Assembly (NCBI GenBank): GCA_018263585.1
Contig: JAANWZ010000044.1
Location: forward strand, 702-56,955
DNA from: Calditrichota bacterium
GTDB lineage: Bacteria > Electryoneota > Electryoneia > Electryoneales > Electryoneaceae
Direction of reading: 5' to 3'
DNA: 56,254 nt
A model generated the notes under the pieces. The model was not told the DNA's origin, ran no database searches, and saw only the letters and a list, made by a program, of their open reading frames with translations. How positions within the stretch are numbered: position 1 is the first letter of the stretch; every line of letters begins with the position of its first letter. The position numbers and the translations under genes are program-made. Positions 7,081-56,250 of the stretch are shown piece after piece.

Positions 7081-7105
7081 ATTGCCGGTCGGTAGAAGGA
7101 GATTC

Positions 7106-7256
7106 ACGCAAACCTGATTCTCGTACGTACCACGTAGGGGTGTGAGGTGAATAGCGTGCGGCTTCAGCCGCACGGGAAGGGAAATAGACGCAAACCCGAT
7201 TATCGCGGCACCCCGTAGGGGTGTGAGGTGAATAGCGTGCGGCTTCAGCCGCACGG
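7106..7256 (+). repeat. Two REP units left of the transposase
   Basis: Two copies of cgtaggggtgtgaggtgaatagcgtgcggcttcagccgcacgg, each with a GTAG motif and the perfect hairpin CGTGCGGCT-TC-AGCCGCACG. Confidence 0.9.
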
Positions 7257-7322: not shown

Positions 7323-7769
7323 ATGAAATCGTATAGGCAAACACTGGTTCACATCGTGTTCGCGACACGTCACCGTCAACCGGTTTTATCGAAAGAAAAC
7401 CGCGAACGGCTGTACCGTTATATCTGGGGCATTTGCAGACAGAAAGAATGCCGTCTCCACCGCATTGGCGGATACGACGAACACGTCCACATTCTTATCA
7501 GTCTTCATCCTTCAATATCTCTCGCTAACTTCGTGCAATTGATCAAGGGGCGTTCCTCGCATTGGATAACCGACGAATCCGTATTTCCCGGGTTTGTTCG
7601 GTGGCAGCGAGGTTACTCCGCGTTCAATGTGTGTTATAAAGAGCGTTCCAGGGTAGTCGAATATATTAAGAACCAGGAAGAGCATCATCATTCTGTCTCG
7701 TTTTTGGAAGAATACAGGGATCTGTTGGAGGACGCGGGCTTTGAGATGGACGAACGTTACCTTCCGTAG
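7323..7769 (+). mobile_element. tnpA: IS200/IS605-superfamily Y1 HUH transposase, REP-associated (RAYT-like)
   Basis: HIVFATRHR, HUH motif EHVHIL, KGRSS, WQRGY, catalytic-Tyr helix YIKNQEEHH. No tnpB. Visibly more AT-rich than its flanks and bracketed by REPs. Confidence 0.92.
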
Positions 7770-7773
7770 CGCC

Positions 7774-7961
7774 GCCCCTACAGGGCGGGGGATCGATGGT
7801 TATTCCGATTCGTGTGGCTGAAGCCACACGCTATCTATCTAAAGCCCGTACGGGGCTGGCGAAGATATACGCAAACCTGATTCTCGTACCCGCCCCGTAG
7901 TGGTGTGCGGTTAATCGCGTGTGGCTTCAGCCGCACGGGAAGGGAAATAGACGCAAACCCG
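7774..7961. repeat. REP units right of the transposase (one inverted, one direct)
   Basis: Inverted unit cgtgtggctgaagccacacgctat...gcccgtacggggc. Segment 7869-7961 is a direct repeat of 7106-7198 (9 mismatches in 93 nt by hand count). Confidence 0.9.
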
Positions 7962-10440: not shown

Positions 10441-10489
10441 TCCGGCGGTCGCACGTTGCGGGCTGCGGGCGGCGGGCACACACAACCCT

Positions 10490-10577
10490 TGCCCTTGACT
10501 TTAGTCAAGGATAATCAAGAGTTTGGTCCACAACCGATGCCCTTGACTTTAGTCAAGGATAGTCAGGAGGTTGGTCC
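10490..10577. repeat. Family-B palindrome CCTTGACT-WW-AGTCAAGG, tandem pair with 48-bp period
   Basis: Cores at 10493-10510 and 10541-10558. Further copies at 27285-27302, 43309-43326 and 56191-56208. Confidence 0.9.
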
Positions 10578-10890
10578 GGGAGCGCTTGCGAAGATCCGGT
10601 TATGCAGTTAGCTCAGCCACGTGTATGGACCGGACTCTGAAGCACATTCGCGCAGCAGAGGCGTCATTCTGAACCCGGCTTCACGCGTCTGTCTGCGTGA
10701 AGACGGGTGAAGAAGGTCCAGCCTATCCGAGGGTTATGTCACGAGTTTCATTGTATCGTCCACCCTTGTCGAACCTGGACCTTCTTCCCTCAGCCCGACA
10801 AACGGACGTCGGGCTTCGGTCAGAATGACCCCTTTGCCACCCGCGATATTGGTCCCGGCTGAGCCAAAGGGATAACCGGGTGCGACCGAG
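10578..10890 (-). mobile_element. 292-bp non-autonomous element, copy 1 (degenerate ends)
   Basis: Inner segment 10592-10883 is the reverse complement of the copies at 20711, 30071 and 52032. GA at 10590-91 and 10884-85. Confidence 0.85.
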
Positions 10891-10892
10891 CC

Positions 10893-14183: not shown

Positions 14184-14209
14184 ACTGACAGGCGGAATGA
14201 ACTGGCACG

Positions 14210-14385
14210 TGCGCACATGCCCGCGGGGACGGCCCGAAGGGCGTCACCGCGGCTGAACCGACGGTGTGGGCTTGCCTGCGCAGTCACGTTCCGCGCTTGA
14301 CAAGCAAGCGCGGGCACGAGGACGCACGTGAGACCCGAGGCTGAAGCCCGCCGCACAGAGACGCGCTGTCACAGGGGCACGTGAA
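14210..14385. repeat. Mosaic REP cluster (families D, GCTTGC hairpin, H, C, E)
   Basis: catgcccgcggggacgg...tcaccgcggctga; gtgggcttgcctgcg; agcaagcgcgggcacgag; gagacccgaggctgaagccc; ctgtcacaggggcac. Confidence 0.8.
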
Positions 14386-19094: not shown

Positions 19095-19375
19095 AGCTCG
19101 TGCCCGCGTTTGCTTGCAATCGCGGACCTGATCTCGTGCCCGCGTTTGCTTGCAAAACGCGGCTCGGAGACGTGCCCCTGTGACAGGCCGGCGAAGCCGG
19201 GATGTCGCAGGGCTCATCGACCGGAGGATCAGCCGCGCGGGCAAGCCCGCACGGGCAGGACGGGTTGTTTGTACATCACCGGTTGATCAGCCGCTGTGAC
19301 GGCCTGCGGCCCGTCCCCGCGGGCATGAGGCGGCCACGCAAGGCCCGGTCCCGCACTTGCAAGCAAGCGCGCAGG
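19095..19375. repeat. Mosaic REP cluster (H x2 tandem, E, GCTTGC hairpin, D, H-like)
   Basis: ctcgtgcccgcgtttgcttgcaa at 19097 and 19133; gtgcccctgtgacag...gatgtcgcaggg; atcagccgctgtgacgg...ccccgcgggcatg. Confidence 0.8.
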
Positions 19376-20589: not shown

Positions 20590-20696
20590 GCCAATCGGTG
20601 ATTGCGAGCGGGTCGGATCCGCGGTGACGCCGTTCGGGACGTCCCCGCGGGCATGTGTCGGGGTGTGCCTGCAACCCGTGGGACGGATGGAACCAC

Positions 20697-21015
20697 GGGG
20701 ACGCTTGCTCGCATCCGGTTATCCCTTTGGCTCAACCGGGAGCAATATCGCGGGAGGCAAGCGTGTCATTCTGACCGAAGCCCGACGTCCGTTTGTCGGG
20801 CGAAAGGAAGAAGGTCCAGGTCCGATAAGAGTGAAGGATACCGTGAAACTCGAGATATGACCCTTGGATAACTTGGACCTTCTTCACCCGCCTTCACGCG
20901 GACAGACGCGTGGAGCCGGGTTCAGGATGACGCCTCTGCCGCCCGGATGTGCTTCAGAGTCCAGTCCAGGCACATGGCTGCGCGAATGGCATAACCGGAT
21001 GCTCGCAAGCGTCCC
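20697..21015 (+). mobile_element. 292-bp element, copy 2, inside palindromic target (core TC duplicated)
   Basis: GGGGACGCTTGC-TC-[GCATCCGGTTAT...ATAACCGGATGC, 20711-21002]-TC-GCAAGCGTCCC. Confidence 0.9.
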
Positions 21016-21033
21016 GCAAGCCCCAACCTCCTG

Positions 21034-21444
21034 TCATCCGGTCGAATCCCGCCCGCGGTCACTCCGCTCGACGCCGGAGCGTGTTCCCAACCGCCGCGGC
21101 GTGCGGTCATCGAGCGCGAACACCCCGATCACCGCGAGCAGGAACAGGATCGTGCTCGCGGTCAGCATCTTCCGCACGTCGACGTACGGGAGCCGGCGCT
21201 GCTCGTCGGTGAACTCCGTGCCACGATCGTACTCGCCCATCGCGAGCGGGACGATTCTGATCGGCACGTGTTCCACCGCGACCGAATCAGTTACGAGCGA
21301 GTCCGGGAGCGAATCGGGCGGCGCGAACACCGTGTGGAAGCCGGCGAAGCCGCCATCCAGGTAGCGCCACGGAGGGGTGAGCGCGAGCAGTGCGAACAGG
21401 GCGAGTGTCGCGACGATCACGATCACCTGCTTGCGGTTGAACAT
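21034..21444 (-). CDS. Hypothetical membrane protein (two hydrophobic segments)
   Basis: N-terminal TM followed by TPPW and a C-terminal TM. GGAG RBS upstream. Confidence 0.7.
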   Translation of the reverse strand: MFNRKQVIVIVATLALFALLALTPPWRYLDGGFAGFHTVFAPPDSLPDSLVTDSVAVEHVPIRIVPLAMGEYDRGTEFTDEQRRLPYVDVRKMLTASTILFLLAVIGVFALDDRTPRRLGTRSGVERSDRGRDSTG

Positions 21445-21509: not shown

Positions 21510-21710
21510 GCGTGCCCGCGCTTGCTCGCCAGGCGCGACCCACTTCCTCGTGCCCGCGCTTGCTCGCCAAGCGCGGAACGAGACCGCGAGAGCAAGCCCG
21601 CACCGTCTGATCAGCCGCGGTGACGGCTGCGCCGTCCCCGCGGGCATATTCCGGGAGGGATGGCCCGGGACTTCGAGGGTGGCCAGCGGCTTCAGCCTCG
21701 GGTCTCGTGT
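21510..21710. repeat. Mosaic REP cluster (H x2, GCTTGC hairpin, D, C)
   Basis: cgtgcccgcgcttgctcgcca x2; gagcaagcccgcac; atcagccgcggtgacgg..ccccgcgggcat; ggcttcagcctcgggtctc. Confidence 0.8.
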
Positions 21711-27237: not shown

Positions 27238-27440
27238 CGGGTGGCCCGGGGCTTCAGCCTCGGGACTCATCCACTTACCCTTGCCCTTGACTTTAGTCAA
27301 GGATAATCAAACGGTTGTCTGGCGAGGTTCGATCACCCGTTGTATGAGCCGCGGTTGCGAGCAACCGCGGGCCTGTAGCAGTGTCATCCTGAACAAGCGC
27401 GGCATTTGTGTGCCGCGCGCAGTGAAGGATCTCGAGAACT
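27238..27440. repeat. Mosaic REP cluster (C, B, F, family-A left arm)
   Basis: ggtggcccggggcttcagcctcggg; ccttgactttagtcaagg; agccgcggttgcgagcaaccgcggg; gtcatcctgaacaagcgcggca..tgccgcgcgcagtgaaggatct. Confidence 0.85.
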
Positions 27441-30056: not shown

Positions 30057-30399
30057 GGGGACGCTTGCGAGCAGCCGGTTGTCCCATTGGCTCAGCCGGG
30101 AGTAGTATCGCGGGCGGCAAAGGAGTCAGTCTGACCGAAGCCCGACGTCCGTTTGTCGGGCGAAGTGAAGTTTATCCTGAACGAAGTGAAGGGAAGGTCC
30201 AGGTTCGACAAGCGTGGAGGATACAATGAAACTGGTGATATAGCCCTTGGATAAGCTGGACCTTCTTCACCCGCCTTCACGCAGACAGACGCGTGAAGGC
30301 GGGTTCAGAATGACGCCTCTGCCGCGCGGATGTGCTTCAGAACCCGGTCCATGCACGTGGCTGAGCTAACGGCATAACCGAATGCGAGCAAGCGTCCCC
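30057..30399 (+). mobile_element. 292-bp element, copy 3 (315 bp with a 23-bp nested insert), core GA duplicated
   Basis: GGGGACGCTTGC-GA-[30071-30385]-GA-GCAAGCGTCCCC, with the insert at 30171-30193. Confidence 0.9.
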
Positions 30400-33085: not shown

Positions 33086-33238
33086 GTCATCCTGAACCCG
33101 CGTGCGGCGTCAGTGTGCCGCATGCGGGTGAAGGAGGTCCGAGTCCGACCCCGGTGGACCATGGAAACACAACCGTCTGTTTACCTGGACCTTCTTCACT
33201 TCGCCCGACGAACAGACATCGGGCTCGTTCAGAATGAC
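33086..33238. repeat. Complete family-A repeat (both arms)
   Basis: gtcatcctgaac-cccgcgtgcggc..gccgcatgcggg-tgaaggaggtcc...ggaccttcttcac-ttcgcccga..tcgggct-cgttcagaatgac. Confidence 0.85.
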
Positions 33239-36780: not shown

Positions 36781-37087
36781 CTGTGCCCCGCGCCCGCTTG
36801 CAGGCCGGGCTGCATTCGCTGTGAATACACCGTCTGGTCAGCCGCGGTTGCGAGCAACCGCGGGCCTGTTTGGATTAGACCGCACGGCCGGTACTGTTCC
36901 GTGGGATCAGCCGCGCTGACCGCTGCGCCGTCCCCGCGGGCATTGTCCGGCGCACTCCGGGGACGCTTGCCAGCAAGCGTCCCCTTCCCATTCCACCCCT
37001 GTCGAACCTGGACCTTTCCTTCACTGCGTTCAGGATAAACTTCACTTCGCCCGGCAAACCGCCGCCGGGCTGCGTTGAGAATGACGC
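36781..37087. repeat. Mosaic REP cluster (G, F, D, empty target palindrome, family-A right arm with 23-bp insert)
   Basis: Empty target GGGGACGCTTGC-CA-GCAAGCGTCCCC at 36959-36984 and insert at 37017-37039. Confidence 0.85.
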
Positions 37088-37119
37088 GGTGTCCGCCTGT
37101 CCGCATGTAGTTTGTTCCA

Positions 37120-43216: not shown

Positions 43217-43298
43217 GTGCGGCTCTGCGTGCTCGTGCCGGTCCCGGGCGCGTTCCGTGCCCATCTCACGGCCCGGGCCTCCCGCTCGTCGTGTAACC

Positions 43299-43474
43299 TC
43301 TTGATTATCCTTGACTAAAGTCAAGGGCAGGGGTATGAACGGCTCATCCACCGGTCGAATTAACCCTGCGACATCCCGCATTCGCTGCGCTACGGCTGGC
43401 TGTCACAGGGGCACGGGCGAGATGAGACCCGAGGCTGAAGCCCCGGGCCACCAGCCGGCGACCCCGGGCTACTT
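43299..43474. repeat. Mosaic REP cluster (B, E, C)
   Basis: ttatccttgactaaagtcaagggc; ccctgcgacatc...ctgtcacaggggcac; gagacccgaggctgaagccccgggccac. Confidence 0.85.
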
Positions 43475-48973: not shown

Positions 48974-49108
48974 ACATGCCCGCGGGAACGGCCTCCTTTG
49001 TACATGCCCGCGGGGACGGCCGGAACGGCGTCACCGCGGTTCAACCAATCCTCGCGCAACCGCGGGGCTGTTCAGCCGCGGTGATCCTTGCGGATCCCCG
49101 CGGGCATT
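48974..49108. repeat. Family-D REP cluster (inverted pair plus partial copy)
   Basis: catgcccgcggg..., catgcccgcggggacgg..tcaccgcgg, and cagccgcggtga..ccccgcgggcat. Confidence 0.75.
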
Positions 49109-49201: not shown

Positions 49202-49780
49202 ATGAATGCGAGACTGACAGTTGTATTGTTCGTCGCGGCCGCGCTGCTGGTCGGCTGCGGCGGCGGTGAACAGGCCGAGGAAATGGCGCAGGAGACCGGC
49301 GAAAGTGTGGAGCAGGCCGCCGGCGAACAGCAGGCCGCCGGCGAACAGCAGGCCGCCGGCGAACAGCAGGCCGCCGGCGAACAGCAGGCCGGGGAGATGT
49401 CGGACGAGATGGCGATGCCGGATCTCGAGGAGATGATGTTCGCGCAGGGCCCGCAGGGGATGAAATACGCGGTGCTGCAGGAGGGCGACGGCCCGGAGAT
49501 CGACAACGGTGACCTGGCGAAAGTCCACTACACGGGCTGGTTCGAGAGCAGCGGCAACCTGTTCGAAAGTTCGCGCAAGCGGGACAAGCCGTTCGAGTTC
49601 ACAGTCGGCTCCGGCCAGGTGATCAAGGGCTGGGATCTCGGAGTCGCGGAGATGCGCGTCGGCGAGCGCCGCCTGATCGTGCTCCCGCCGGAACTCGCGT
49701 ACGGCGAGCGCGGCTATCCCGGCGGCATCCCGCCGAACAGCACGCTCGTGTTCGATGTGGAAGTGCTCGGCAAGGAGTAG
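49202..49780 (+). CDS. FKBP-type peptidyl-prolyl isomerase, lipoprotein
   Basis: Lipobox LLVGC, then VHYTGW, FESS, GQVIKGWD, LAYGERG, IPPNSTLVFDVEVL. Confidence 0.95.
   Translation: MNARLTVVLFVAAALLVGCGGGEQAEEMAQETGESVEQAAGEQQAAGEQQAAGEQQAAGEQQAGEMSDEMAMPDLEEMMFAQGPQGMKYAVLQEGDGPEIDNGDLAKVHYTGWFESSGNLFESSRKRDKPFEFTVGSGQVIKGWDLGVAEMRVGERRLIVLPPELAYGERGYPGGIPPNSTLVFDVEVLGKE
49311..49391 (+). repeat. Perfect 18-bp tandem repeat x4.5 encoding (QQAAGE)n linker
   Basis: agcaggccgccggcgaac repeated at 49311, 49329, 49347 and 49365, plus a half copy. Confidence 0.95.
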
Positions 49781-49826
49781 GCGGGCGGCAGAGAGACGCC
49801 GCGCACGTTCAGGGTGACATTCACTG

Positions 49827-49952
49827 CAGGCCCGCGGTTGCACGCAACCGCGGCTCATCCACCAGTGGGTGCACGGCCGGGAAGGGGACGCTTGCTGGCA
49901 AGCGTCCCCGGAATGCCGCGGGTCACCCCGGGGTCGGCGACCCCGGGCTACT
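49827..49952. repeat. Mosaic REP cluster (F, empty target palindrome, C-like)
   Basis: gcccgcggttgc-ac-gcaaccgcggct, and GGGGACGCTTGC-TG-GCAAGCGTCCCC at 49884-49909. Confidence 0.85.
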
Positions 49953-49983
49953 TGTTCAGCGTCGTGATCCGGGCCCGGCGCCG

Positions 49984-50536
49984 TCAGCGAGATCTACGGG
50001 TGGAGCCGGCGGCGGCGCGGCGATGTCCTTCGATGACCAGGGCTGCTGCGTCATCGCGTCCGAGCCGGCGGAACCGTGCCTCGAGGCGCCCGGCCGTGCG
50101 CGATTCCTCCGCTCAGGTGCGCGCTCGCGAACGTGTGATAGAGCTCGCTGACGGGCGCGGGTGCGAGCTCCTCGAGCGCCCGCAGCGCGCGCATGTCACG
50201 ATCCACCTGCCCCTCCGCGATAGATCCACGCCGATCCGCATACCGGTCGAACAACGGCAGCAGCACATCCCACGCGCGGTGCGGGGCGAGACGGTATTCG
50301 GTGTCGCTCCGTCCCGGCCTGATCTTCGACGACTTGTGCAGCCGCTCCCAGTTCAACGCGCGTTTCAGCGGATCGTGCGGATGTTCGCTGAGCCGGGTCC
50401 ACCAGCTGCGCGTGTGTGCGGGCAAATCGAGTGCGAGGAAAACGCCGATCCGCGCGATCGTCTCATCGCAGCGCGCCGGGTCGAGCAAATCCTCCATCCG
50501 CAGCACGAGCGTGTTCGGCGACGTGCGCGCGAGCAT
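49984..50536 (-). pseudogene. 5'-truncated gene remnant, possibly sulfotransferase-like
   Basis: Coding-like GC3 bias. LVLRMEDLL..P...IARI..FL resembles the lrYEDL motif. Upstream is occupied by REPs, and there is a possible frameshift near 50110. Confidence 0.4.
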
Positions 50537-50558
50537 CAGCGAGGTCCGGCGGGCAAGA

Positions 50559-50632
50559 GCCCGGCCTGCGAGCAGGCACGGGGCATAGTTGACTGAGAGG
50601 ATGTGAGACCCGAGGCTGAAGCCCCGGGCCAC
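50559..50632. repeat. REP cluster (G, C)
   Basis: gcccggcctgcgagcaggcacggggcata; gagacccgaggctgaagccccgggccac. Confidence 0.85.
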
Positions 50633-50655
50633 ACGACGCAACACAGAGCCCGCTG

Positions 50656-51135
50656 CTACCCCCACACGGGTGGGTCGCGGCGGGCGGAGTCGGGCAGGGT
50701 GCGGGCGAGCGTGATCGTGAGCGCGCCGTCGCGCGTGAACTCGCCGGAGACGTCATCGAGGCGCTGATTCGCGATCGCAAGCCCGGGCAGGTCGAGCGCG
50801 CGCGCGGTCGCCCCGTGCGGGCGGAACGAGCCGGTCGCAACCCCCTCCGGGACCTCGCTCAGGCTGCAGCGGACGCGGAACTCGATGCTGTCGCCGTACA
50901 CGGTCATATCGAGGCGGAAGCTGCGGTCCGGGTCGGTGTCGAGCAGGTCGCGGATCACATCGGCGCACACGGAGAGCACCGCGACCTGGATCCGTTCGGT
51001 CTCAAACGGCCCGAGCCGGAGCCGGCGGCAGGTGGAGTCGATCTTCTCCTCGATGATGCCGAGGAACGCCGGGTCGGCGGCGTACTCGACCGCCCAGCGC
51101 AGGGAGAACAGGTTGCGGCGTTGTCTCGCGGTCAT
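50656..51135 (-). CDS. RsbW/SpoIIAB-like (HATPase_c) protein with degenerate ATP-binding boxes
   Basis: Size and pattern ERIQVAVLSVCADVIRD..IEFRV..PGLAI...LDDV....GALTITL match the anti-sigma factor layout. Confidence 0.6.
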   Translation of the reverse strand: MTARQRRNLFSLRWAVEYAADPAFLGIIEEKIDSTCRRLRLGPFETERIQVAVLSVCADVIRDLLDTDPDRSFRLDMTVYGDSIEFRVRCSLSEVPEGVATGSFRPHGATARALDLPGLAIANQRLDDVSGEFTRDGALTITLARTLPDSARRDPPVWG

Positions 51136-51142
51136 CGTTGAG

Positions 51143-51802
51143 TCAGGAGAACCCGTTGAATCCGAACGACTTGAGGAAGTCGGGCTGCAGGTACGGGTTG
51201 ATCCGTTTTTCGACGCCGATCGTGGTCGCGGGGCCGTGGCCGGGGTACACGCGCGTGTCGTCGGGCAGCGGGAGCAGTTTCTCGCGGATGCCGTCGATCA
51301 ACGCGCGGCCGTCCCCGCCCGGGAAGTCCCAGCGCCCGATGCTGCCGGCGAACAGGGTGTCGCCGGCGAACACGTGGCCGCCGTCGTGGAGGAAGACGAC
51401 GTGGCCGGGCGTGTGGCCGGGGATGTGGATCACGCGCAGTTTCAGCGCCCCGAACGCGACCGTGTCGCCGTCCTCGATGAGCCGGTCGGGTGCGCCGACG
51501 GAGAGCGGGACGGCGAAGTGCAGCCCGAGATTGAGCTCGGGGTCGGTGAGCATCGGCGCGTCCGCCGGGTGACAGATGACGGGCGCGTCCGGGTAGCGCT
51601 CGCGCATCTCCGCGACGGCGCCGATGTGGTCGCCGTGACCGTGCGTGAGCAGAATCGCGGCCGGTTCGCAGCGCCATTGTTCGAGCCCGGCGACGAACCG
51701 CTCCGGCTCGGCGCCGGGGTCGATCACGACCGCGTGGTCCCCGTCGCGCACGAGGTAGCCGTTCGTCTCGAGATCGCCGACACTGAGCGTGACGATATCC
51801 AT
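51143..51802 (-). CDS. MBL-fold metallo-hydrolase (glyoxalase II / YcbL-like)
   Basis: TNGYL, IDPG, THGHGDHIG, PGHTPGH, GDTLF.GSIGR.DFPGG, YPGHGP.TTIG.E...NPYL. Confidence 0.93.
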   Translation of the reverse strand: MDIVTLSVGDLETNGYLVRDGDHAVVIDPGAEPERFVAGLEQWRCEPAAILLTHGHGDHIGAVAEMRERYPDAPVICHPADAPMLTDPELNLGLHFAVPLSVGAPDRLIEDGDTVAFGALKLRVIHIPGHTPGHVVFLHDGGHVFAGDTLFAGSIGRWDFPGGDGRALIDGIREKLLPLPDDTRVYPGHGPATTIGVEKRINPYLQPDFLKSFGFNGFS

Positions 51803-51925
51803 GCAGCCCTCATCCCTCGCGGGTGTTACGAAAAACACCGGCCGCGCGTTCCGCAACCGATGTTCCGCTCCTGATTCGCGCGCCGGTCGGATCAACCGCG
51901 CGGGCGGCAAAGAACAGCTTCTGCC

Positions 51926-52012
51926 GAGCCGCGGTGACGGCCTTCGGCGCGTCCCCGCGGGCATGGCAAGCAATGTGCCCCTGTGACAGCGCGCAGCGAT
52001 GTCGCAGGGCTC
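51926..52012. repeat. REP cluster (D, E)
   Basis: agccgcggtgacgg..tccccgcgggcatg; gtgcccctgtgacag..gatgtcgcaggg. Confidence 0.8.
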
Positions 52013-52017
52013 GCTGC

Positions 52018-52337
52018 GGGGACGCTTGCGAGCATCCGGTCATCCCCTTGGCTCAGCCGGGACAAGTATCGCGGGTGGCAAAGGAGTCATTCTGACCGAA
52101 GCCCGACGTCCGTTTGTCGGGCGAAGGGAAGAAGGTCCGAGTTCAACAAGGGTAGAGGGTATAATGAAACTCGAAAAACAGCCATTTGGTAAGCTGGACC
52201 TTCTTCACCCGCCTTCACGCAGACAGACGCGTGAAGCCGGGTTCAGAATGACTCCTCTGCCTCCCGAATGCGCTTCAGAATCCGGTCCATGCACGTGGCT
52301 GAGCGAACGGCATAACCGAATGCGAGCAAGCGTCCCC
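52018..52337 (+). mobile_element. 292-bp element, copy 4, inside palindromic target (core GA duplicated)
   Basis: GGGGACGCTTGC-GA-[52032-52323]-GA-GCAAGCGTCCCC. Confidence 0.92.
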
Positions 52338-52430
52338 CTTCGCGGCAACCGTTCGGGCTATGTGCGCACCGCAGCCGGGCCGCACGGGCGGTACTGATTC
52401 GGCGACCGACGACAATCCATCGGCCGGATT

Positions 52431-54053
52431 TCAGGCCACGCGCATGAACTGCTCGATGAACTCGTCGGGGCGGGACGGCGTGCCGGTCGCGTTCATCATC
52501 AGCTCGTTGGATTCCCAGAGCGCGCCGTGCTTGAACACGTGCTCTTCCAGCCACTGCCCGATGCGTTCATCGTCCATCCAGAGCACGGGCTGTTCGAGCG
52601 CGAGCTGACGGATCATCGCGAGCGCGAGCTGGCTCGCGTGCCAGTCGGCGATGATCGAGTTCTGCACGGTGACCGGGCGGAGCATGATGTCGGGCTGGAC
52701 GGCCCAGTCGGCGAGCTCCTTGCGCCCCGCGGGCCGTCGCAGGAGCTGGAACCGTTCGACGAGATCCCACCACCGGTTCTGCTGATTCTGCTCCGGGTCA
52801 CGGTAGAGGCCGCGCTCGAAGTGGACCTGGACGAGCTTCCAGCGGCCGGTGATCACCATCTGCATCCGCAGTTCGCTGAGGATGAGGCGGTCGAGGCCGC
52901 GGATCTGGCTGCCCCTGAGCGCGAACATGTTGATCAACCACTCGAAGTCGGTGGCGCGCCGCGCGAAGAACCGGCCGACAGCTTCGAGCAGGGACGGGTG
53001 CGCGGGGCGGCGCAGGGTGTGCGGGAGGTCGCGGTCGATCCGGCTCGTGTACGCCGCCTTCCCGAACGCGGCGAGGATCTCTTCGGCGGACTCCTTGTTC
53101 GGCGCGGGCGAGAGCACGATCCGCATGTCGCCGCTGCGGTCGATGTCGGCGAACTCCTGCTTCGGGTACAAACTCGCCTGTGAGATCGCATCGTCCGGGA
53201 GCGCGCCCGCGAGCGGGAGTCCGATCCGCTCGAAGTAGCCCGGCGCCCAGTCCATCGGGTCACGCTCGGCGTAGAGCGCATCGACATTCGTCTCGAACAC
53301 GGCGGGCACTTTCGCGAAGTACGGGTCGGAGCAGTACCACGGCTCGAGGTCGATCGCGTCCACGTCGAACTTGTCGGAGAGGAGGCGGTCGAGCTGGGCC
53401 TTCATCCGGCGGAACGGATCTTCGGTCTCGGTGGCGAAGCTGCTGAGCGCGCTGAACAGGCGGGTCTCGTTGATCTCCCTCAGCTCCATGTGCATCCGGT
53501 AGTAGTCGGGAAACCCGATTGCGCGGGATGCGACGTTGCGCGCCTTCGCGAGATCGACGATGTCCTGGGCGATCTCCGGACCGATCGTCTTGCTCGCCTC
53601 CCACGCGCGGCGGCGGGCATCGATGTCATCGCTCTTGGACATGATCCGGTGCACTTCCGCGACCGTGGACCGCTGCCCGTCGATCTCGGGACGGAACCGG
53701 CGCACCTTCGCCTCGAGCTGCTTCTCCTTGATCACGAGCGCCTCGCGGATGTCGGACGGGAACAGGTGCGGCGCGATCTCCTGGCGGAGCAGGGACGCCC
53801 AGCGGCGGAGCTCGATGTCCTGCACGGCGGCGTCCGCGAGCCGCTCGCTCAACTGTTCAAACAGTTCCTTGTCGGCCAGCTCGTTTCGGTAGGCGATCTC
53901 CGCATCCCTGCTCCTGTCGATGGAATCGTCGTCCGGGCTGACCATCGCCCGCCAGTTGCTGAGTTCGCGGCTGGTTCGCGCGGGGGCAAACCGCTCGTCC
54001 GCCGCTTCGAGAGTGTCACGAAGTGCGCGTTCCACATCGGAATAGCCGGCCAC
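52431..54053 (-). CDS. M3/M2-like metallopeptidase homologue lacking HExxH (putative pseudopeptidase)
   Basis: RRRAWEASK, ARN..SR.IGF.DYY, LEPW..SDP.F, DIDR.GD.RI, LP..LR..AH...EA, FER.LY.DP, WW.LV...Q. The HELGH position reads AAFGK. GAGGAG RBS before GTG 54053. Confidence 0.8.
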   Translation of the reverse strand: MAGYSDVERALRDTLEAADERFAPARTSRELSNWRAMVSPDDDSIDRSRDAEIAYRNELADKELFEQLSERLADAAVQDIELRRWASLLRQEIAPHLFPSDIREALVIKEKQLEAKVRRFRPEIDGQRSTVAEVHRIMSKSDDIDARRRAWEASKTIGPEIAQDIVDLAKARNVASRAIGFPDYYRMHMELREINETRLFSALSSFATETEDPFRRMKAQLDRLLSDKFDVDAIDLEPWYCSDPYFAKVPAVFETNVDALYAERDPMDWAPGYFERIGLPLAGALPDDAISQASLYPKQEFADIDRSGDMRIVLSPAPNKESAEEILAAFGKAAYTSRIDRDLPHTLRRPAHPSLLEAVGRFFARRATDFEWLINMFALRGSQIRGLDRLILSELRMQMVITGRWKLVQVHFERGLYRDPEQNQQNRWWDLVERFQLLRRPAGRKELADWAVQPDIMLRPVTVQNSIIADWHASQLALAMIRQLALEQPVLWMDDERIGQWLEEHVFKHGALWESNELMMNATGTPSRPDEFIEQFMRVA

Positions 54054-54247
54054 CGGTTGTCTCCTCGCTGGGCAGGGTTCGGAGAGCGGTCCGCCGGGCG
54101 GCGGGACCGCGGTCGTGTGCATCGCTGATTGTACAGCCCGGGAAGGTACGAATCCCCGGTGAACAGCGCAAACAGCGGCAGGTGCAAGCGTCGCGGGACG
54201 GTGACGGTCGATTCGCGCGCCGGCCGTCGATTGCTTACCTTCGCCGC

Positions 54248-54982
54248 ATGGCGCAACTGGAAGTGTACCGGATCGATCCGGCGGCGGTCGATGTCGCGCG
54301 CGGCGAGGCGACGCTGAGCGGGGACGAGGCGCACCACCTGCTGCGCGTGCGGCGGGGCCAACCGGGCGAGCGGGTGATGTTGATCGATGGGTACGGGACC
54401 GCATGGAGCGCGCAGTTGGTTGCCGCCGAGCGCGCGAGCGCCCGGTTGCGCCTGGTTTCCCGGCACGAGCGCTGGCGCGAACCGCCAGTGCGTGTGCACC
54501 TTGGCATCGGCCTGTTGAAGGCTGATCGTGTGCTCGACGCGATCGACCAGTGCGTGCAGGCCGGGGTCGCGGAGATAACGCCGTTCGCGAGTGAGTGTGC
54601 GGTCGCCGGCTGGCGTGAGAACCGTGCTCGCCGCGCCGAACGCCGCGCGCTGGAAGCGGCGAAACAGTGCGCGCGCGGGAGTGTACCACCCGTACACGCG
54701 CCACAACCGATCGCGGACTGGTGCATCCAACGGGAAGCAGGCGCACGCAAACTCGTGGCCGACACGGACGGGGACGCGTTCCCGGACATCGCCCCGGGTG
54801 AACGGGTCGCGGTCGCGGTCGGGCCGGAAGGCGGGTTCAGCGAGCGTGAGATCGAGTTCATGTTCGCGCACGGGTTTCGCCGCGTCAGCCTCGGCCCGCG
54901 GCGGTGCCGCAGCGAGACGGCGGCCGTGCTCGCCGTCGCCGCAATCACCGGCCGCGTCGAACAACCGCCGGCCGTGTCGTGA
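54248..54982 (+). CDS. rsmE: 16S rRNA (uracil-1498-N3)-methyltransferase
   Basis: HHLLRVRR, EAAKQCAR..VP, VGPEGGFS..E, SLGPRRCRSETAA. Confidence 0.93.
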   Translation: MAQLEVYRIDPAAVDVARGEATLSGDEAHHLLRVRRGQPGERVMLIDGYGTAWSAQLVAAERASARLRLVSRHERWREPPVRVHLGIGLLKADRVLDAIDQCVQAGVAEITPFASECAVAGWRENRARRAERRALEAAKQCARGSVPPVHAPQPIADWCIQREAGARKLVADTDGDAFPDIAPGERVAVAVGPEGGFSEREIEFMFAHGFRRVSLGPRRCRSETAAVLAVAAITGRVEQPPAVS

Positions 54983-56044: not shown

Positions 56045-56080
56045 CAATCCACACGGTCTCCCCGGGACACACGCCGTCGC

Positions 56081-56250
56081 CATGCCCGCGGGGACGGGCC
56101 GCAGGCCGTCACCGCGGCTGATACAACGGAGCATGAGACCCGAGGCTGAAGCCCCGGGCCACCCATTCTCTTGACTTACCTTGTGATTATCCTTGACTAA
56201 AGTCAAGGGCAAGTCTGTACAGGCCCGCGGTTGCTCGCAACCGCGGCTGA
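56081..56250. repeat. Mosaic REP cluster (D, C, B, F)
   Basis: catgcccgcggggacgg..tcaccgcggctgat; gagacccgaggctgaagccccgggccac; ccttgactaaagtcaagg; gcccgcggttgctcgcaaccgcggct. Confidence 0.88.

Follow-up and report, generated by a model that had tools for sequence, protein, structure and literature searches.

A probable IS1595-type MITE with 8-bp target duplications and a preference for T-N6-A sites and REP centres in a Calditrichota genome

Insertion sequences (ISs) of the IS1595 family and the MITEs (miniature transposable elements with inverted repeats) derived from them, such as ISApl4 and a 165-bp MITE of Haloquadratum walsbyi related to ISHwa6, have terminal inverted repeats (TIRs) some 24 bp long and an 8-bp target-site duplication, and the same is true of a 286-bp repeat present in four copies in a 56,254-nt stretch of a Calditrichota bacterium genome (assembly GCA_018263585.1, contig JAANWZ010000044.1, positions 702 to 56,955; this whole stretch is called the window below). 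In the description given by PMC12561309, the IS1595-family IS ISApl4 makes 8-bp direct repeats and prefers A/T-rich 8-mers, IS1016 elements make direct repeats of 7-9 bp, and an IS of the family forms a circular intermediate, while Table 4 of PMC3852290 includes an IS1595-related archaeal MITE for which an inverted repeat of 25 bp and a direct repeat of 8 bp are given. Like the MITE derivatives of IS1595, the repeat analysed here is small and multi-copy, and its TIR type is common to IS1595-family ISs of sister genera. It differs from ISApl4 in preferring T-N6-A targets with a GC-rich palindromic hot spot, TTGCNNGCAA, within repetitive extragenic palindromes (REPs), and from IS1595 ISs in being without a cognate transposase in the assembly and in having an interior unrelated to the IS. 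We consider the repeat likely to be a MITE of IS1595 type that duplicates 8 bp of its target and prefers T-N6-A / TTGCNNGCAA sites. As a mobile element it is of an ordinary sort, and what is unusual about it is its choice of targets.

Insertion inside REP palindromes is shared with IS1397 and ISKpn1 of IS3, with IS621, ISPpu9 and ISPpu10 of IS110 and with members of IS4, IS5 and IS256. As REP targeting in five IS families is described by Tobes and Pareja (PMC1525189), a REP-targeting DDE element has precedent. IS1595 lies outside those five families, and the MITE differs further from these ISs in being non-autonomous and in using REPs as a hot spot and not as an obligate target. The bridge-RNA (seekRNA) recombinases of IS110/IS1111 (PMC11208160, PMC11187229) resemble the MITE in their taste for REPs and in leaving a short sequence identical at both junctions. 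Unlike them, the MITE has an 8-bp repeat, TIRs and varied targets, and no DEDD gene was found in the assembly. IS110/IS1111 elements are marked by a core of about 2 bp shared at the junctions, no long duplication and one specific target per element. A further likeness is to REP doublets forming hairpins (REPINs) and the REP-associated tyrosine transposases (RAYTs), as the cargo of the MITE consists of two inverted hairpin units able to fold as one long hairpin and as Y1_Tnp (RAYT-like) genes occur at three places in the genome, in one case between arrays of a palindrome called REP-B below. A REP/REPIN system is marked by a cognate RAYT flanked by the same repeat. REPINs are not known to have TIRs and a target duplication, whereas the 286-bp MITE has both, and its two cargo hairpins have different stems.

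The MITE family and its 8-bp target-site duplication

The assembly under study (labelled G000) comprises 2.85 Mb in 165 contigs with 66% GC and is 91.85% complete, and it was compared with relatives labelled G002, G005, G010, G013, G014 and G015, the last belonging to a different genus of the same family. A repeat finder located four copies in the window (10583-10891 in reverse, 20696-21011, 30071-30399 and 52017-52337), in agreement with a sequence-only reading of this DNA which had put them at 10592-10883 (reversed), 20711-21002, 30071-30385 and 52032-52323, three of 292 bp and one of 315 bp. The mean column identity across the four aligned copies is 84%, and copy 3 contains a 23-bp insert. 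The inverted ends, the split half-sites GGGGACGCTTGC/GCAAGCGTCCCC (degenerate at copy 1) and the dinucleotide NN on both sides of each copy (TC, TC, GA, GA) are as that reading described them. Its outer boundaries have to be moved inwards to those of Table 1; the outer 'GCA...TGC' belongs to the duplication. The MITE proper is 286 bp long, or 309 bp with the 23-bp insert, contains no gene and runs TCCGGTTAT...ATAACCGRA (an end pair also written TCCGGTTAT...ATAACCGGA), with TIRs of about 24 bp (TCCGGTTATCCCTTTGGCTCAGCC).

A profile built from the four window copies was searched through the whole genome with nhmmer and gave 300 raw matches, of which 207 were non-redundant and 54 full length, well above what chance would produce. 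Flanks were extracted for 53 of the 54 full-length copies, one at a contig edge being dropped, and duplications were counted in 46 of these 53, as the right-end motif was not located in the other seven. Among the 46 copies, 19 measured 283-286 bp, 20 measured 306-311 bp (the '+23' form) and seven had other sizes, the two forms thus being about equally frequent genome-wide. The 53 aligned copies had pairwise identities between 0.64 and 0.99 with a median of 0.81, and several pairs at separate loci were 96-99% identical (C110/C145 98.6%, C142/C146 97.4%). As the median stands at 0.81 and the maximum at 0.99, the bursts were both old and recent; the MITE family is old, yet moved fairly recently. 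Rebuilt targets equal intact REP-A palindromes (described below) and pairs of copies with up to 98.6% identity occupy different loci, but the contigs compared at copy 4 (see below) show the filled state only. The repeat shows what is expected of a MITE: it is small, non-coding and multi-copy (54 full length), and it has TIRs and a duplication of fixed length.

The direct repeat at the MITE ends is 8 bp long (TGCNNGCA). Across 45 copies, the left and right flanks agreed at a frequency of 0.60-0.82 at each of positions 0-7, against 0.24 and 0.29 just before this register and 0.20 and 0.20 just after it. A perfect 8/8 duplication was found in 15 of 46 copies, compared with 1.69 per 46 under shuffled left/right pairing, and six further copies had a single mismatch; at least one high-mismatch row (C165) results from a one-base boundary shift of the motif finder, its shifted right 8-mer being equal to the left one. 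Duplications outside palindromes are plainly longer than 2 bp (TACCGGCG, TTTCGATT, TACAATGA, TTCTTGAA, TGCACAGA, TAACCGAA and TGCATACA), and those at non-REP sites are unrelated to one another in sequence. In the window copies the duplication is TGCTCGCA or TGCGAGCA, the NN pair is its middle, and the 'GC-NN-GCA' of the earlier reading lies within it. The shared NN reflects a staggered 8-bp cut and not a 2-bp crossover, and the 'second palindrome' that joining the ends would form, which had been taken as att-like (resembling a phage attachment site), is simply TIR + duplication + TIR. The non-palindromic NN is repeated directly, not inverted, on both sides, and therefore the MITE inserted into a pre-existing palindrome, a point on which the earlier interpretation was right. 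The att-core look of a non-palindromic NN across a split palindrome is a trap that recurs wherever transposons land in palindromes.

Table 1. Coordinates of the MITE copies, their parts and the REP-A palindromes in the window
Feature	Position	Strand	Remarks
MITE copy 4, element proper, 286 bp, TCCGGTCAT...ATAACCGAA	52035-52320	+	boundaries from sequence; full-length nhmmer match
Copy 4, left 8-bp target-site duplication TGCGAGCA	52027-52034	.	identical to 52321-52328
Copy 4, right 8-bp target-site duplication TGCGAGCA	52321-52328	.	identical to 52027-52034
Split REP-A palindrome around copy 4, outer left part GGGGACGCT	52018-52026	.	
Split REP-A palindrome around copy 4, outer right part AGCGTCCCC	52329-52337	.	
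Copy 4, left TIR, 24 nt	52035-52058	+	18-20/24 identical to G015/G002 IS1595-family IS ends
Copy 4, right TIR, 24 nt	52297-52320	-	19-20/24 identical to G015/G002a IS ends
Copy 4, cargo 'core' GTCATTCTGA...TCAGAATGAC, a long central stem with an inverted pair of tag-plus-hairpin units about it	52086-52252	+	
MITE copy 2, 286 bp	20714-20999	+	duplication TGCTCGCA at 20706-20713 and 21000-21007; within REP-A palindrome
MITE copy 3, 309 bp (23-bp insert variant)	30074-30382	+	duplication TGCGAGCA at 30066-30073 and 30383-30390; within REP-A palindrome
MITE copy 1, 286 bp	10595-10880	-	decayed duplication CGGTCGCA / TCTTCGCA, 3 mismatches; half-sites degenerate
Intact (unfilled) REP-A palindrome, NN = CA	36959-36984	.	
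Intact (unfilled) REP-A palindrome, NN = TG	49884-49909	.	

Target choice at T-N6-A sites and REP palindromes

Targets were rebuilt from the 21 copies whose duplications had at most one mismatch, and these carried T at position 0 in all 21 and A at position 7 in 18, together with T at -1 in 16/21 and A at +8 in 16/21. The target consensus is T-N6-A, and the summed G/C preferences give TTGCNNGCAA as its best form. Two families of palindromes have this decamer at their centre: REP-A (GGGGACGCTTGCNNGCAAGCGTCCCC), with 164 intact copies in the genome, and REP-B (CCCGCGGTTGCNNGCAACCGCGGG), with 253, at most three mismatches being allowed for each. The left duplication reads TGCNNGCA in 16 of 45 copies, and TTGCNNGCAA accounts for just 443 of the 67,601 genomic T-N6-A sites. 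As the T-N6-A optimum is the REP centre, many copies seem to 'split' a palindrome with the same NN on both sides; at copy 4, the left flank, one duplication and the right flank together rebuild GGGGACGCTTGCGAGCAAGCGTCCCC, a REP-A palindrome.

REP-like halves were present on both sides of 13/45 copies (10 REP-A and 3 REP-B), on one side of 17/45 under loose criteria and on neither side of 15/45, where these class calls tolerate up to three mismatches in 11-12 nt and some of the 'one half' labels are probably chance. The 15 copies lacking a REP-like half have good duplications nevertheless, with at most one mismatch in 8/15 and at most two in 12/15. REP centres are a strong hot spot for the MITE, not a requirement. 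The claim that the repeat targets REPs thus holds for a favoured target (16/45 left duplications) and fails for an exclusive site (15/45); the sequence-only reading had itself named a core commonly lying outside palindromic half-sites as evidence against its att-type mechanism, and that is the situation of these 15 copies. The MITE occurs in both orientations relative to the non-palindromic NN, TC and GA. All six filled REP-A sites with identical NN have TC/GA, compared with 69 of the 164 intact REP-A palindromes, a difference that rests on small numbers (Fisher p = 0.0066). A transposase complex with two-fold symmetry would favour a palindromic TTGC/GCAA target of this kind.

Full-text word searches of a limited literature collection returned no IS1595-type MITE with a REP-centre hot spot in print. 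With the MITE assigned as above, IS1595-type elements would join the IS families that use REP centres as hot spots, and the target consensus, T-N6-A with the optimum TTGCNNGCAA, is clean and testable.

The relation between REPs and MITEs runs in both directions. A REP-A palindrome lies inside the centre of two MITE copies (C153:15256 and C102:5397), and four half copies of the MITE end at REP-A (C41:6885, C152:15481, C68:317 and C95:2967), from which it follows that REP-A itself moved or recombined after MITE insertion. With REP-A within MITEs and MITEs within REPs, the two invade each other. Besides, the window encodes a Y1_Tnp (IS200-like/RAYT-like) gene at 7338-7676 (+; Pfam 2.2e-25), with other REP-type repeats at 7100-7256 and 7811-7961, and two more such genes, making three in the genome, are found on C14 and C160. 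The C160 gene stands between REP-B arrays (three upstream and two downstream), and REP-B is therefore a genuine REP/RAYT system. No RAYT gene adjoining the cargo unit or REP-A was found in G000, the three Y1_Tnp genes bordering other REP types. Another family of REPs (...CCGCGGTGACGG...CCGTCCCCGCGGGCATG), whose motif is matched about 209 times genome-wide, is represented in the window at 14199-14259, 19279-19333, 20610-20661, 21603-21654, 36899-36950, 48986-49046, 51929-51971 and 56064-56129, one copy being just upstream of MITE copy 4.

Terminal repeats of IS1595 type and the source of mobility

Taken together, an 8-bp duplication and ~24-bp TIRs point towards a DDE transposase. Weak BLAST matches to the TIR region in G015 prompted a mismatch-tolerant pattern search, which at up to three mismatches gave 50 matches in that genome against one for the reversed-pattern control, three in G014 and none in G013 or G010. 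Two pairs of the G015 matches bound 997-bp elements (L016 528-1524 and L028 245-1241), each with a 322-aa open reading frame (ORF) that is matched by two Pfam models, DDE_Tnp_IS1595 (2.9e-32) and Zn_ribbon_IS1595 (1e-16), and by NCBIfam NF033547 (5.2e-62), and the two encoded proteins are 96% identical. When the G015 transposase was searched in 15 other genomes of the family, matches were obtained in three genomes, G015 itself included, with 19 matches of 59-63% identity in G002 and fragments of 51-69% in G005. The IS ends of G002 and G005 are of the same TIR type, TCCGGTTATGCCCTTAGCTCAGC or TGTGGTTATCCAGTTAACTCAGC, and copies 2 and 4 of the window have TIRs identical to the IS ends at 18-20 of 24 positions for G015 and G002a and at 14-17 of 24 for G002b. 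The same TIR type therefore bounds ISs of about 1 kb with zinc-ribbon and DDE IS1595 transposases in three other genera (G015, G002 and G005). Longer copies with the same ends around a transposase, which the sequence-only reading had proposed to look for, were thus not found in the G000 assembly itself and are present as IS1595-family ISs of about 1 kb in its relatives.

MITEs with these ends also occur in G015, where they measure about 205-350 bp and have a different interior. At eight such loci, three duplications were perfect 8-bp repeats (TCATCCCG, TACAAGCA and TAGCAGCA) and one had a single mismatch, and one G015 end lies in a REP-like centre (TGCGAGCA|AGCACGGGCC). Where G002 IS ends coincide with contig ends, T is the first base of the neighbouring 8-mer in 7/7, echoing the T at position 0 in G000. 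Short matches to the transposase tail in G002 were considered as deletion-derived MITEs and rejected, as they are IS ends at contig ends. The full-length ISs of the relatives (L016 528-1524 and L028 245-1241 in G015; L132 1487-2475 and L134 227-1210 in G002) lie in A/T-rich flanks and have no recognisable 8-bp duplication, unlike the same-ended MITEs.

The repeat thus shares its TIRs with IS1595-family elements (in G015, G002 and G005) and has their 8-bp repeats; a cognate transposase in the same genome was not found in the 91.85% complete assembly. The MITE inserts through a staggered 8-bp cut, from which the 8-bp target-site duplication results. An IS1595-clade DDE transposase would move it in trans by binding its two TIRs. 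This transposase may be absent from, or not assembled in, the 92%-complete genome. Multi-copy ISs often fail to assemble, and the cognate transposase may lie in the missing ~8%, may be on an unbinned replicon or may be lost.

Several results weigh against the assignment to IS1595. No IS1595 transposase was detected in the 91.85% complete assembly by Pfam PF12762, and tblastn of G000 gave a best E of 0.39 with the G015 transposase and nothing at E <= 1 with two G002 proteins. The four full-length ISs with both flanks (two in G015 and two in G002) were without a clean 8-bp duplication. The likeness to the ISs is limited to the terminal ~25-30 nt and the interior differs, so that an origin through internal deletion would be at most a possibility. 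The one DDE trace detected in G000 belongs to ISL3, a family which also makes 8-bp duplications. Neither an empty site nor an excision joint was seen at copy 4 in the contigs of four of the sequencing runs that contain the organism (eight DNA runs from two studies, with no RNA run listed), which is a weak test as such contigs break in repeats. The site was filled in both studies, all four runs having a contig that leads from 52308 into the right unique flank (49800-54000 compared).

Other sources of mobility and further copies were looked for as well. Pfam scans of G000 were negative for IS256, IS66, IS1595, IS4/IS5 (DDE_Tnp_1), rve, IS110 DEDD (PF01548), IS6, IS1 and DDE_3, and positive for two only, ISL3 (one fragment) and Y1_Tnp (three genes). 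An autonomous copy was sought in G000 through its ends: the TIR with at most five substitutions gave two orphan sites outside the known copies, neither of them beside a transposase, and the 12-nt end motif with at most one substitution gave nine, among which C69:28361 precedes a 130-aa ORF, with no transposase-sized ORF near. The exact TIR pattern had no match in public genome contigs and none in public metagenome contigs, from which the source genome's own records were possibly excluded. A BLAST search with the whole element against 40 relatives found no full copy, the partial matches being of 27-57 nt in four genomes.

As the repeat folds strongly, its copies might have been kept for a host function, as a structured RNA or a protein-binding DNA/RNA module (a terminator, a small RNA (sRNA) or a binding site), with mobility being secondary. 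The consensus forms a near-perfect fold-back with a minimum free energy (MFE) of -163.5 kcal/mol, and the MFE of 10 copies ranges from -138 to -158 kcal/mol compared with about -100 +/- 5 for mononucleotide shuffles, which bears out the strong fold-back reported for each copy. A host function would also suit the intergenic position of the copies, copy 3 lying directly after the pnp stop codon, and a cargo unit with a conserved tag and loop and variable stems, found across the phylum. However, the fold-back pairing, assessed over 103 pairs in 53 copies, held in 88.2% of cells against 88.0% after partner shuffling, and double-change cells numbered 46 against 35 +/- 5 (maximum 47) in shuffles, with no excess over shuffles worth claiming on either the RNAalifold structure or the full fold-back. 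As these values are near the shuffled ones, there is no covariation beyond what palindromic origin gives. Rfam returned nothing at gathering thresholds for the whole window, and in E-value mode 51950-52400 gave chance-level microRNA/sRNA rows only (best E 0.18, for microRNA models). The proposed structured RNA product thus finds no backing in covariation or in Rfam, the copies have diverged to 64-81% identity in the manner of neutral DNA, and we regard retention for a host function as very improbable.

Mobilisation of the MITE by the ISL3-family element of G000 appears very improbable to us, even though this element provides the only DDE transposase trace in the assembly. Its ends are found at two contig ends (C63:7539-7769 and C47:~114), a C-terminal transposase fragment lying at the end of C63, where the last ~54 profile positions are assembled, and the second matching IS end at the start of C47. 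ISL3 elements make 8-bp duplications. An ISL3-related MITE with a 7-bp direct repeat is included in Table 4 of PMC3852290. The ISL3 end, however, reads GGCTCCTCACAAGAATG... and has no likeness to the MITE TIR, which matches IS1595-type ends at 18-20 of 24 positions.

The mechanism originally proposed, in which site-specific recombination of an IS110/IS621-like or att x att kind integrates a non-autonomous unit, via a circle, at a 2-bp core within the REP centre, has next to no chance of being correct: the identical NN on both sides of the four window copies, the frequent use of REP palindromes and the REP targeting known for IS110-family elements (PMC1525189; PMC11208160) speak for it, but it is largely refuted by a repeat register of 8 bp instead of 2 bp, and it is further opposed by the 24-bp TIRs, by the 15/45 copies without a REP-like half-site, by diverse target 8-mers that are incompatible with one fixed guide, by both orientations relative to the non-palindromic NN, by the lack of a DEDD_Tnp_IS110 domain in the (incomplete) assembly and by the IS1595 transposases that the same TIR type encloses in relatives, so that what stands of that proposal is a mobile, non-coding and non-autonomous unit moved in trans.

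The tag-plus-hairpin cargo and other features of the window

The part of the IS1595-type MITE most worth a further look is its phylum-wide tag-plus-hairpin cargo, which is common to unrelated MITE shells. Model positions ~50-222 of the MITE are common to many shorter repeats and define a 'core' that extends from GTCATYCTGA to TCAGRATGAC and folds as a four-way junction, in which a closing stem is followed by a hairpin on the left, a long stem in the centre and a second hairpin on the right; 287 paired cores were counted in G000. The underlying unit of about 50 nt consists of the tag GTCATYCTGAAC followed by a hairpin and occurs about 1,068 times in the 2.85-Mb genome. A hairpin of at least 5 bp follows the tag in 869 of the 1,068 units, and the loop is mostly (G)TC[ACT]GTT(T), while the stems vary freely (276 distinct 5' stems). 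G000 has 789 occurrences of the exact 12-mer GTCATYCTGAAC and 0 of the reversed control, and among 79 genomes sampled from the phylum the 12-mer was over-represented in 74, some having up to ~200 matches, with 0-1 for the reversed control. Units of this type are also present elsewhere in the window, e.g. at 1792-1870, 33165-33225 and 37040-37089.

The core fills at least three MITE shells of differing ends and duplications, namely the 8-bp T-N6-A type treated above, a TA-flanked type and another 8-bp type. The TA-flanked shell (F2) has the TIR GTGGAACAAACCACATGGAACGA and 13 paired copies, six of them with TA on both sides (e.g. C75:33730-34001 and C59:2160-2431), and the other 8-bp shell (F3) has the TIR AGACTGTTGA..., 8-bp direct repeats and six paired copies (e.g. 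C62:9289-9479 and C71:2065-2278). The clustering of the core's flanking arms was messy and is used here qualitatively only. The internal ~170 bp of the MITE would seem not to be IS-derived but to be a local cargo of two inverted hairpin units found across the phylum. We tentatively suggest, as one possibility among others, that the cargo unit could be a structure-specific site for an HUH/RAYT-like or other protein and has been captured repeatedly by unrelated transposons, or that it could itself seed new MITEs. The nesting of REPs, MITEs and hairpin units, with a MITE in a REP, a REP in a MITE and one cargo in several shells, offers useful material on MITE origin.

In the window, copy 4 has on one side the start of a gene for a metallo-beta-lactamase-fold protein (51143-51973, minus) and on the other the point where a peptidase-like gene (52431-54746, minus) stops, and copy 3 follows directly past the pnp stop codon. 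No ORF of at least 150 aa runs across copies 1, 3 or 4, and at copy 2 the right part is overlapped by a candidate frame of 166 aa (20864-21364). A repeated block of about 40 nt with the palindrome CCCTTGACTTTAGTCAAGG is present at 10481-10576, 27273-27320, 43295-43335 and 56173-56213, and two tandem copies of it abut MITE copy 1. Apart from these, an inverted repeat at 548-657 is near-perfect, its 52-nt arms being separated by 6 nt, and similar sequence is found beside the MITE copy C137:2884, while at 49280-49412 a tandem array of about 5-6 units of 18 bp (GCCGCCGGCGAACAGCAG-like) overlaps long ORFs on both strands.

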